Below are positions 3,001 to 6,000 of a stretch of DNA of 18,229 nucleotides, piece by piece; within the stretch, counting starts at the first letter, position 1, and each line of letters begins with the position of its first letter. Position numbers: made by a program. The stretch comes from a virus (Duplodnaviria; Heunggongvirae; Uroviricota; Caudoviricetes). The stretch lies in IMG/VR virus record IMGVR_UViG_2778261567_000023, positions 1 through 18,229 of that record; one strand, 5' to 3'.

Positions 3001-6000
3001 GGGTTACATACAACTGGGAGAAGATGATCAGTTCTCCCCAATACCAGGTCGAAATGAAACCACTCATCAGGCGTAGCTCCCCATGGTTTGCTATCGGACA
3101 TGGGTTAAGCCTTTTTGTTTGACTACATTTTTTTGCTCCAAAATCTTTTCAAGTTGAAGAGCTCTTAGCTCTGGGATTTCCTCCCCCCATTGAGATACGG
3201 CTCCTTTGGAAACCTTCAATAGTCTCGCTAGTTTCGCTTTACTTCCTGCAAGCTCAATTGCTTCTGCTTTTTTCATAACCGTTACCCAGGAAATATATGG
3301 TTATATGAGGTTAAGAAAACTAAACCAACAAGTCAAGAAAGCGATACCCTGATTAAGTTAAGCTAACTAAACTATATGAGGGTAAAACCATGATTAATGA
3401 TCGTATTCGCGAGGCTCGTCGCAATGTCCACCTAACGCAGGATGCGCTTGCTAAACGTATTGGTCTAACTAAAGCCACGATTTCACAATGGGAATCCGGA
3501 AACACCACACCTAACGGGAAAAATCTTATAAATCTGGCCGAAGCATTGAACGTTTCTCCAGAGTGGCTACTTTCAGGCAAAACAAGCAATACCAAAGAAA
3601 TACATTCTAATGCACAAGTTGAGGGAGGGTTTTCTGTATGGGACTCATCAACGCCATTAGAGGATGATGAAGTGGAAATACCGTTCTATCAGGAAATTGA
3701 GCTATCTGCCGGTAATGGTACTTATGTTGATATAGATCGAATGGGATGTAAGTTAAGATTCGCCCGTTCAACGTTGCGCAAAGCAGGTGTTGACGTAAAT
3801 TGTGCGGCTTGTGTCAGCATCCACGGCAACAGCATGGAACCGGTATTACCGGATGGCGCTGTCGTCGGCATAGATACATCAAAAACAGGTGTAAAAGATG
3901 GTCAAATGTACGCTATAGACCAAGACGGATTACTTCGTGTCAAACTATTGTACCGTCTCCCAAGCGGACTCCGGATACGCTCTTTCAATAGGGATGAATA
4001 CGCAGACGAAGAGTATTTTAATCAAGAGGCTAATAAAATCAGGATTATAGGCCAAGTATTTTGGTACTCCGTTCTGCTCTGAGCGTAAATTCACTCTATA
4101 CCACATGCCCGCTTCCTAAGCGGGCTTTTCTTTACCTATCCGAAAAAGTTCACTTTTCTTAACCACAACACTTGACTTTGTGAGTTTAGAGGTCTTAACT
4201 ATATGCGTGAAGTTAAGATATCTATACATAGATATTTAAACCACAAGTCGAACGGCGCGACTCTAAACCATGCGTCGGGACCGTGGCGGGACAGGATGTC
4301 GGCAATACGGGTCAGTAAGTTCCCTTTGGGGTGCGGCGAAGCACTGTCTAATTAATACAAGTCGAAGCCGCCGAACCACCAAAGAGAACTGAATGAGGAA
4401 TCACAAGATGCCTAAATATAAACTGGTTAATGACCTGGCTATCGGTGACAAAATTGAATTCAGTGGAAAACGGATAATGGAGGTTACCAAAAAAACTGAC
4501 CGCGACCAGCATAACGTTAGCCTGACTCTAGTTAACAAACATACAGGTTCTGCGACCAATACTTGTTTTAACCGAATGGATACCGTCGTCCTTCACCCAT
4601 AACAATCCTCTGAATCATCCATGTAATTGCTGTGTGTAGTCTTTGCCCGCCTCACGTGACGGGCTTTTTTATGTCTGAAAGCGCACTCGCAACAGCGCGC
4701 TCCCCGATATGAAAAAAGGAATACAACCAATGAAACCTGAACACCTCTATCGACTGACGGGGCGCGATGTTCTCCGTTATCGCCGTAAAAACTTCGATTT
4801 GATGACCGGTCTGGCCGTTGCCACTGCGCTCGGTCTGATCATCACTTTCATTCTCCTTGTTGCGAGGACCACAGTATGAGTTTAGAAACCAGTCTCGAAC
4901 TTAATAATCAACTTCTGGCACAACATAATGCGCTGCTTGAACGTCTTATCCGCACAATGGCATCAGGTATTGTTATGCATCCTGACACGATTTCACGAGT
5001 GCAGGAATGTCGGGATACAGCAACTGAAGCTGAAAACATGTCAGCGGCAATGACACTGGATGATCTGGAGTTCAGCGACGTTATCGCACTGGCTGGTTTC
5101 TACCCGGTAGCCACCCCTATCACAGAAGACATGCTGCAACGTGCTGTTGCCTACCGTGATGCTGAAGGCGATAAACGAGTAGTTCAGATTGATGCTCTCG
5201 ACCGCGCATTACAGGGCGTCAAACGAGCCAGGGCGCTGCTTAAACCTGCTCTCCTGGACCTGTCCCGTAACATTCTTAAGTTCTGGGACGACCTGCCAAC
5301 CATCGGCGAGCGACGTGCTTTTGCCGAGCAGCTACTTGATGCACCTGCAGATGGGCGTGATGAAGTTAAGCCGAAAAAGGCCAGTAACAAAGATGGAGAA
5401 CGCACGGGGCCGTTTTACGTCAAAAATATATCCGGCACAGCAGCCAGTGAACTCCACACCTTACGCAAGTTGAACGAGATGCTTAAAAAAGGCCATATCG
5501 AGATCAACCGTGTTGAGTACCTTCAGCTGCAGGAAGAATTTGCACGCAGAGACGCAGCAAATTCCAGCCAGAATAATAACGCCAAAGATGACCATACAAT
5601 TGATTTCGCGGCACTACGCAAACAAGCTGAAGGGTTGATCCTCCAGTTAGCAAAAGGGGGTTACCGGGCAGAAGCTATTGCAATTCTGGAAAAACAGGGA
5701 GCCAGGAAACTTGGTGAAGTAACAGATGAAAATCTCGCTGAAGTAATCACCCTGGCTGAAAAAGCACTGGAGGGTTAATCATGCCGGAAGCCTGGAAGGA
5801 TATTTCAGGCTTTGAAGGAATTTACCAGATTTCAGACGCTGGCAACCTGAGAAGCCTCGACAGAACTGTATTAAACAAAGGTTCTGGCTGCACCTATCCC
5901 ATTAAAGGTAAGTCACTAAAACCACGCTATGACGCAGACGGATATCTCATCACCGACTTATGGAAAGCGGGTAAAAAGGTAACCGTCAAAATACACCGTC

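Follow-up and report, generated by a model that had tools for sequence, protein, structure and literature searches.

The window analysed here is the 18,229-nucleotide stretch formed by positions 1-18,229 of IMGVR_UViG_2778261567_000023, the record of a Caudoviricetes virus in IMG/VR, and all coordinates given below are window positions. At the head of its early operon lie two overlapping genes, encoding a 49-aa peptide (pep49) and a 300-aa protein (p300), upstream of the genes for a DUF2800 nuclease, a Gp2.5-type annealing protein and a family A DNA polymerase (PolA). The function of p300 probably lies in assisting DNA replication and recombination rather than in anti-defence on its own. We tentatively prefer the explanation that p300, a modular protein without enzymatic activity, acts as an adaptor or regulator of the nuclease/annealase/polymerase module and that pep49 is a co-translated, lineage-specific membrane accessory. 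This reading is based on the linkage of p300 to the DUF2800 nuclease, its modularity, the constraint on its sequence, its status as a core gene, the absence of an enzymatic motif and the known context of the module. Among these, the linkage is the strongest functional clue and argues, on the evidence of gene order, that p300 is a core part of the module. The p300-DUF2800 linkage, the modular architecture of p300, the replaceability of the membrane peptide and a look-alike of the RprA RNA upstream of the pair are new in this analysis.

The early operon of the window corresponds, as judged from its gene content, to the duf2800-gp2.5-polA replication/recombination module, which has been described previously (PMC8093625): genes for DUF2800, a Gp2.5-type single-stranded DNA (ssDNA)-binding protein (SSB) and a family A polymerase are encoded on one strand in that order, and there is no separate ssb gene. 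The rule that a p300-family gene stands upstream of DUF2800 was derived in this analysis and is not a published criterion. It was examined from the nuclease side with an alignment of eight DUF2800 proteins, which yielded 80 IMG/VR loci, 46 of which (56-100% identity) were analysed. A p300-family open reading frame (ORF) was identified upstream of DUF2800 in all 46, with a gap of 0-3 nt in 43 and of ~515 nt in three; in the window, this junction is occupied by an HNH gene. The family gene also adjoins or overlaps DUF2800 in the case of proteins P0140, P0142, P0158, P0188 and P0196 (133 aa), P53 of APSE-1 and the YeP5 protein and, listed by locus, in L082, L083, L087, L088, L095, APSE-1 and YeP5. 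The gene for P0197 (locus L097) is located 89 nt upstream of DUF2800 with no ORF between them, one small ORF intervenes in L094 and in Acinetobacter phage 4316, and that for P0193 lies in the same operon at a distance of one to three small ORFs. Even the minimal family members, consisting of the N-terminal helix, a linker and the C-terminal domain (118-160 aa), retain the linkage to DUF2800. The only relatives unlinked to DUF2800 are YdfE-like proteins, which share a single part of p300.

The pair was also examined in a clade sample of 80 IMG/VR loci, which were obtained by a pattern scan with a p300 alignment. The p300 family is a core gene in this sample (80/80 loci), and the gene order pep49, p300, DUF2800, SSB, PolA is present throughout, interrupted in a few loci by an HNH gene at the p300/DUF2800 junction; the immunity genes and the stretch from cI to pep49 are variable. 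The ratio of non-synonymous to synonymous substitution rates (dN/dS) against 10 divergent relatives is 0.10 for p300 and 0.25 for pep49. Because these values are low and the pair recurs in all 80 loci, sequence conservation confirms that both are real, conserved prophage genes under purifying selection and not chance ORFs. The pep49 stop codon TGA (4877-4879) overlaps the p300 ATG at 4876 in the sequence GTATGA (4876-4879 for the overlap itself), and the p300 Shine-Dalgarno sequence GAGGA (4863-4867) lies inside the pep49 gene, an arrangement that predicts translational coupling of the two genes. The overlap is present in 78 of the 80 loci, and in the other two (L054 and L077) an extra gene lies between pep49 and p300. 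The HNH gene of the window was found at the p300/DUF2800 junction in six loci, and L043 has a different HNH gene (48% identity) there; the related phage vB_EcoM-606R2 and most relatives have no HNH gene, and their p300 gene abuts DUF2800. Both junctions thus tolerate insertions. In two DUF2800-anchored loci (L149 and L171), the gap between p300 and DUF2800 is of the same size as the HNH insertion of the window. The genes inserted between pep49 and p300 (L054:4937-~5990 and L077:5302-~5997) encode repeat-rich proteins with heptad-like repeats of the type SAASNTG or ARIGSSGYD and a conserved C-terminus, ...VLCYR..G.L.HIRASKVG...; a partial copy of this gene (L082:1-240) stands directly upstream of the family gene.

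p300 is a mildly acidic protein (pI 5.27; 49 Asp and Glu versus 40 Lys and Arg residues, net charge -9). An AlphaFold 2 (AF2) model obtained with the more diverse alignment has a mean predicted local distance difference test (pLDDT) score of 81.5 and a predicted template modelling (pTM) score of 0.42, and contains 14 helices and one small three-stranded sheet; in this model the individual modules are confidently predicted, while their mutual arrangement is undefined. Four modules are distinguished (Table 1): an amphipathic N-terminal helix, followed by a disordered acidic linker; a helical middle domain, followed by a basic KPKK linker; a GPFY module, followed by a second acidic linker; and a C-terminal three-helix domain. 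The dN/dS values of the folded modules are 0.04-0.09, compared with 0.53 for the linkers, and that of the neighbouring DUF2800 nuclease gene is 0.03. PHROG 6784 matches p300 over residues 1-300 (E=1e-177), and PHROG 33976 and PHROG 408 match its C-terminal part. Only 79 clusters of the p300 family were identified in a profile search of 1.84 billion representative proteins, and the family is, by sequence comparison, a narrow one without a named function (PHROG 6784/33976/408; APSE-1 P53, BPP-1 Bbp35). Its members differ in module content and order: N - mid - GPFY - C in the window, N - GPFY - mid - C in P0140, P0141, P0142 and P0160, N - mid - C in YeP5 and many proteins of 225-250 aa, and N - C only in BPP-1 Bbp35, P0193, P0195 and P0196, whereas mid and C of APSE-1 P53 follow an N-terminus unlike that of the other members. 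Such permutation and loss of modules between lineages would be expected of independent binding modules on a tether.

The named phage relatives are similar in location. APSE-1 P53, Bbp35 of Bordetella phage BPP-1 and QCW23548 of Yersinia phage YeP5 share the C-terminal three-helix domain of p300 and, except for P53, also the 'MSLE...' N-terminal helix; P53 and the YeP5 protein share the middle domain as well, Bbp35 lacks both the middle and the GPFY modules, and the GPFY module is an addition of the window protein relative to all three. Their genes occupy the same place, i.e. after the repressor gene and at the head of a DUF2800-Gp2.5-type-PolA operon that lies opposite a cro-primase operon. 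All three are annotated only as hypothetical or 'phage protein', and the comparison therefore provides no function. The YdfE-like proteins share ~130 residues with p300 (the end of the middle domain plus the GPFY...VEYLQL stretch): residues 108-241 of p300 align with a YdfE-like protein of 513 aa at 30% identity (pairwise E=5e-13; profile E=4e-7). The genes for these proteins are also located in an early operon running towards an integrase gene, but the proteins are ~500 aa long, have neither the MSLE N-terminal helix nor the C-terminal domain, and are not encoded beside DUF2800. In the precomputed Pfam annotation, on which this negative result rests, the listed p300 homologues carry no YdfE_N or YdfE_C label; the label on the 500-aa relatives is also precomputed and was not reproduced with the Pfam copy used here, from which these models seem to be missing, and a check of it by DNA similarity to E. 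coli genomes gave no match.

Searches for a known fold or function gave no assignment. Pfam, NCBIfam and PADLOC yielded nothing above noise for pep49 or p300, a PDB sequence search with p300 found no match, and no enzymatic motif or family match for p300 was detected in Pfam, NCBIfam and PDB sequence and profile searches. Pfam assigned no families to ten distant p300 relatives and produced only scattered matches (E above 0.01) for 24 isolated C-terminal domains, and Foldseek against BFVD retrieved only short uncharacterized phage proteins (E 0.07 or worse). Matches of the C-terminal domain to DARPins and ankyrins in a PDB profile search were rejected as an artefact, the sum of insignificant repeat matches with a per-stretch E of 20 or worse. 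Every named match of p300 (586 database hits) and of pep49 (52) is hypothetical or uncharacterized. Literature searches on DUF2800/DUF2815, YdfE/YdfD, APSE P53 and phage-borne RprA yielded no functional information on pep49 or p300, and published work treats APSE P53, BPP-1 Bbp35 and YdfE as proteins of unknown function. A preliminary description of this DNA had reported a 49-aa single-pass membrane peptide with an ATGA overlap onto an acidic, helix-rich 300-aa protein, neither with a recognizable motif, as the first substantial unit of the early operon. The peptide (hydropathy 2.56, purifying selection), the overlap, the richness in helices and the lack of a motif in the Pfam, NCBIfam, PADLOC and PDB sequence searches all agree with our results, and remote homology searches and structure prediction, which it had proposed as a check, identified no known fold or well-characterized homologue. 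The description was thus correct, the protein being acidic only mildly, and needs a single correction: the pair, while situated at the head of a PL-like operon running from cI to int, is preceded by a 69-aa ORF and the RprA-like element and is not the first coding unit after the promoter.

According to the adaptor reading, p300 would work with the DUF2800 end-resection nuclease, the Gp2.5-type annealase and PolA in recombination-dependent replication. The amphipathic N-terminal helix would probably serve in oligomerization or docking, and up to three small, independently folding modules on disordered acidic linkers may each bind a different partner, i.e. nuclease, annealase, polymerase or DNA ends, in a manner likened to the binding of lambda Exo by the C-terminal three-helix domain of lambda Red-beta. 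Since the p300 gene abuts or overlaps the nuclease gene, the two proteins are expected to be made together. pep49 may modulate or localize p300, or act alone at the membrane. We infer the physical interaction of p300, its adaptor role and any membrane tethering from these features. Several points weigh against this reading. An HNH gene at p300/DUF2800 or a repeat-protein gene at pep49/p300 is inserted in some loci, so that tight translational coupling is not required. Two genes separate Bbp35 of BPP-1 from the nuclease gene, and three do so in the Roseobacter phage RDJL phi1 (gp46). In its central part, p300 shows homology to YdfE-like proteins, the genes for which lie in lambdoid PL-type operons that lack DUF2800. 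In addition, the gene order gam-bet-exo of lambda is also conserved, yet the target of Gam is a host function rather than Exo or Bet, and adjacency is thus no proof of a complex. The lambda Red system shows no sequence homology to the window module; the nuclease of the window is of the DUF2800/AdnA-like PD-(D/E)XK type and its annealase of the OB-fold Gp2.5 type, whereas lambda uses a RecT/Red-beta type annealase. The structural match to the Red-beta C-terminal domain/lambda Exo complex (PDB 6M9K) was no better than that to designed helical bundles, and is taken as a lead and not as evidence.

The lambda precedent leads to a different explanation, which we consider unlikely and which comes close to the anti-defence idea of the preliminary description, namely that p300 is a Gam-like protector that inhibits RecBCD, a similar host nuclease or a defence system attacking phage DNA ends and thereby lets the nuclease/annealase pair of the phage operate. 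The position of p300 upstream of exonuclease and annealase genes mirrors that of gam in gam-bet-exo, the protein is helical, its linkers are acidic, its N-terminal helix is a possible coiled coil, and its transcription would be early, from a putative repressor-controlled promoter. However, no sequence or fold similarity to Gam, Abc2 or gp5.9-type host-nuclease inhibitors was found in p300, its net charge is only -9, and its acidic parts are disordered linkers rather than the structured surface of a DNA mimic. Accessory anti-defence genes are usually variably present or fast evolving; the folded modules of p300 are strongly conserved, and the same C-terminal domain occurs across phages of Roseobacter, Bordetella, Acinetobacter and enterobacteria, as would sooner be expected if its partner is a component of the phage than if it is one of the host. 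The free-standing anti-defence or host-modulation unit proposed in the preliminary description is therefore not favoured, because the operon is a duf2800-gp2.5-polA module in which p300 is a core gene beside DUF2800 and because the modules are constrained (dN/dS 0.04-0.09) and conserved across very different hosts. The part of that proposal concerning a coupled pair at the head of an early operon stands, but the pair is not an obligate unit, since sister lineages replace pep49 and two loci have a gene between the two. On the other side, DUF2800 nucleases are sensed by a retron defence system (bioRxiv 10.64898/2026.07.14.737667), which places the module within the interplay between phages and host defence.

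A somewhat more doubtful explanation focuses on the host: the RprA-like RNA, pep49 and p300 would form a host-modulation cassette resembling that of the Qin prophage, in which the gene order is dicF-dicB-ydfD-ydfE. The small RNA (sRNA) mimic would rewire regulation, pep49 would perturb the envelope or cell division, and p300, partly YdfE-like, would act on a host target. The alignment described above involves a YdfE-like protein encoded in a lambdoid PL-type operon together with KilR and beside an integrase gene, the copy of the 3' half of RprA lies 56 nt upstream of pep49 and is conserved in most of the fetched loci, and the cytoplasmic head of pep49 is highly conserved. Qin encodes YdfD in the same region as ydfE. 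YdfD is a small lysis protein (PMC8835842), but pep49 resembles neither YdfD nor DicB and carries its membrane segment at the C-terminus. Furthermore, the linkage of p300 to DUF2800 persists in sister lineages that replace pep49 with a non-membrane peptide, the YdfE homology covers one part of p300, the listed p300 homologues lack the YdfE label, and YdfE itself is without known function, so that the analogy predicts little. We regard as quite improbable a third alternative, in which p300, anchored by pep49, is a replication organizer that recruits the primase-helicase and the polymerase at the inner membrane (cf. phi29 p16.7 and lambda O). In all relatives examined, the replication operon has p300 as its first core gene and lies opposite the primase-helicase operon; unrelated lineages encode small membrane peptides beside family genes (the pep49/YeP5 type, L097 and Acinetobacter phage 4316); and the combination of an N-terminal helix, a flexible linker and a small C-terminal helical domain resembles that of replisome organizers. 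Yet a search of the p300 gene and its vicinity for iterons or origin-like repeats was negative, no DNA-binding motif was detected in p300 by Pfam and profile searches, the gene adjoins that of the nuclease and not those of the primase or polymerase, and approximately half of the lineages carry a non-membrane peptide, indicating that membrane anchoring is not general.

The pep49 ORF spans 4709-4879, but the conserved start is the ATG at 4730, resulting in a peptide of 49 aa: the 49 positions of the PHROG 11981 profile align with residues 8-56 of the ORF in its longer version (E=1.4e-36), the upstream ATG at 4709 is missing in divergent relatives, which retain the AAGGAG box and the ATG at 4730, and an AAGGA Shine-Dalgarno sequence is located 9 nt ahead of 4730. 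In vB_EcoM-606R2, a gene of 150 nt is annotated at this place. pep49 has a pI of 10.9 and consists of a basic N-terminal part (24 residues, net charge +4), a single hydrophobic stretch and a C-terminal tail of four residues, the top 19-residue Kyte-Doolittle window (GLAVATALGLIITFILLVA) scoring 2.56. These features fit an N-in, C-tail-anchored single-pass topology. The head, MKPEHL[HY]RLTGRDVLR[YW]RR (4730-4795), is almost invariant and has a dN/dS of 0.12 (residues 1-22), whereas the core of the transmembrane segment (~4802-4867) is variable; conservation returns at the end, ...TFILLVAR, which is overlapped by the p300 Shine-Dalgarno sequence. The dS of pep49 is 0.53, far below the value of 1.9 for the adjoining p300 gene in the same genome pairs. 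This low value suggests constraint at the nucleotide level or a more recent exchange of the segment containing the RprA-like element and pep49.

In Enterobacteriaceae, the homologues of pep49 comprise 52 clusters of 46-49 aa and a few that were called longer. A second form, found in YeP5-like and other loci (MNSLKQMQHRYRLTGADF...TFILLVAR), is clearly homologous to it. In sister lineages, the position directly upstream of the p300-family gene is occupied by an arginine-rich, non-membrane peptide of 43-47 aa, ...NNxVRRLRYxxK..LKRNP..FPITLY (L083:5849-5992, L088:5854-5988, L089:~421-552 in APSE-1, L095:2794-2925 and many DUF2800-anchored loci), and for this reason pep49 is, judging from these sequences, an accessory specific to its lineage rather than a partner that p300 must have. 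Some small basic peptide beside the p300-family gene is common across lineages. The motif of the arginine-rich form recalls arginine-rich RNA-binding peptides. The basic head of pep49 and the sister peptides share a short 'LRYxxK' sequence, which is too short for a homology test, and no claim is based on it. Unrelated small single-pass membrane peptides also adjoin p300-family genes in L097 (4673-4884) and in Acinetobacter phage 4316 (L093:4131-4265); in the latter, the peptide gene lies between the family gene and DUF2800. Although pep49 is small and membrane-spanning, the arrangement is not that of type I toxin-antitoxin systems (Hok, TisB and similar), because the nearby RNA element is on the same strand and upstream rather than antisense.

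This RNA element, located 56 nt upstream of pep49, was identified by its similarity to Rfam RF00034 (the host sRNA RprA), with a score of 55.6 bits (E=2.8e-6) that is below the gathering score of 70. Its core, ATTGCTGTGTGTAGTCTTTGCCC, is identical to E. coli rprA over 23/23 nt and is followed by an equivalent GC hairpin and T-run; the sequence of the hairpin differs in relatives, with the pairing kept. The RprA-like block was found in 131 of the 177 fetched loci. The conserved module begins ~105 nt upstream of pep49 and the block is more conserved than coding sequence, while relatives either lack the 5' half of the element or show little conservation of it. A processed form of RprA, RprAproc, consists of its last 47 nt and is active in vivo (PMC9262595), and the span of core, hairpin and T-run matches this form. 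Unlike RprA, the element of the window, recognized by sequence, belongs to a phage operon rather than being a gene of its own under Rcs control. Literature searches retrieved no account of a phage-borne copy of RprA. The element is also shaped as an intrinsic terminator directly before pep49, and a consensus scan revealed no sigma-70 promoter between the two, so that expression of the pair would depend on read-through, barring an undetected promoter between them. RNA folding of the leader (region 4665-4718) pairs the U-run at 4665-4675 with an A-rich tract at 4707-4718, just before the pep49 Shine-Dalgarno sequence, and encloses a second small hairpin (~4679-4701), the stem of which changes in sequence and remains self-complementary in relatives; the z-score of this fold, -1.24, is not significant.

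A bolder, speculative extension of these results, which we hold to be rather unlikely, is that the p300 family represents the missing third component of Gp2.5-type recombination systems, i.e. a modular hub that would couple DUF2800 to the annealase and polymerase or shield DNA ends. In the enterobacterial lineage of the window, this hub would be accompanied by a membrane peptide and by a processed-RprA copy carried by the phage, which would reprogramme host Hfq/RpoS-linked regulation at induction. The pair itself consists of ordinary early genes without an assigned function. The duf2800-gp2.5-polA module is, however, widespread in temperate and virulent phages of many phyla, and no role has ever been assigned to the gene that always precedes the nuclease gene in the BPP-1/APSE/enterobacterial branch. 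Should p300 prove to be a partner that the nuclease requires, the minimal recombination machinery of such phages would need to be redefined, recombineering tools derived from Gp2.5-type systems could be improved, and a new candidate would be available for the component that is sensed by host defences or by which phages conceal their DNA ends. The phage-borne RprA look-alike is in our view the most publishable lead of the analysis.

Table 1. Features of the window and subdivisions of the RprA-like element and p300
Feature	Positions	Strand	Basis or remark
Q antiterminator	209-631	-	Pfam/PHROG scans
VapE-type primase-helicase	915-3101	-	Pfam/PHROG scans
cro	3091-3276	-	Pfam/PHROG scans
Inverted operator, AGTTAAG-N4-CTAAACT	3356-3373		within the cro/cI intergenic stretch 3309-3373
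cI (helix-turn-helix + S24 peptidase)	3390-4082	+	Pfam/PHROG scans
Putative early promoter: TTGACT (4172-4177), 17-nt spacer, TTAACT (4195-4200)	4172-4200	+	read by eye
18-bp operator, AGTTTAG-N4-CTTAACT	4183-4200		overlaps putative early promoter
69-aa ORF	4393-4602	+	no family match; variable insert between promoter and conserved module
RprA-like RNA element	4576-4674	+	Rfam RF00034, sub-threshold
RprA-like core	4626-4648	+
RprA-like GC hairpin	4645-4664	+
RprA-like T-run	4665-4670	+
pep49, predicted C-tail-anchored inner-membrane peptide of 49 aa	4730-4879	+	PHROG 11981
p300, modular protein of 300 aa	4876-5778	+	PHROG 6784
p300 N-terminal amphipathic helix (MSLE...), aa 3-30	4882-4965
p300 helical middle domain, aa 61-165	5056-5370
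p300 GPFY module, aa 175-232	5398-5571		beta-beta-alpha-beta-alpha (AF2); 'RxGPFY...G.IEI.KVEYLQL'
p300 C-terminal three-helix domain, aa 244-300	5605-5775
HNH homing endonuclease (NUMOD4 + HNH_3)	5781-6299	+	Pfam
DUF2800 PD-(D/E)XK nuclease	6292-7593	+	Pfam DUF2800 E=1.4e-109, also PDDEXK_1; PHROG 69 'exonuclease'
Enc34/Gp2.5-type ssDNA-binding and annealing protein	7609-8157	+	Pfam Enc34_ssDNA-bd E=9.7e-45; PHROG 112
Bro-N protein	8503-9303	+	Pfam/PHROG scans
Family A DNA polymerase, third gene of duf2800-gp2.5-polA module	10044-12107	+	Pfam DNA_pol_A
DUF4406	12534-12833	+	Pfam/PHROG scans
Weak VRR-NUC match, under Pfam cutoff	12796-13092	+
Rha-type regulator	13876-14724	+	Pfam/PHROG scans
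SNF2 helicase	14769-16163	+	Pfam/PHROG scans
Integrase	16357-17760	-	Pfam/PHROG scans

The features identified in the window are listed in Table 1. The operon containing pep49 and p300 runs from the repressor gene towards the integrase gene and is topologically equivalent to that of lambda PL. The putative early promoter was not reported by the consensus promoter scan; together with the operator that overlaps it and recurs inverted between cro and cI, it represents a probable repressor-controlled promoter of the PL type, as read from the sequence. Because the operator over the promoter is shared with the cro/cI region, pep49 and p300 would belong to a repressor-controlled early operon extending from cI to int. 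The 69-aa ORF had no match in Pfam and PHROG and was found in only four of the 80 related loci; the mosaic junction to the conserved module is located just past it, at ~4617. The translated DUF2800 nuclease contains a cysteine cluster, and additional palindromes are present at 4212-4241, within the promoter stretch 4147-4241.

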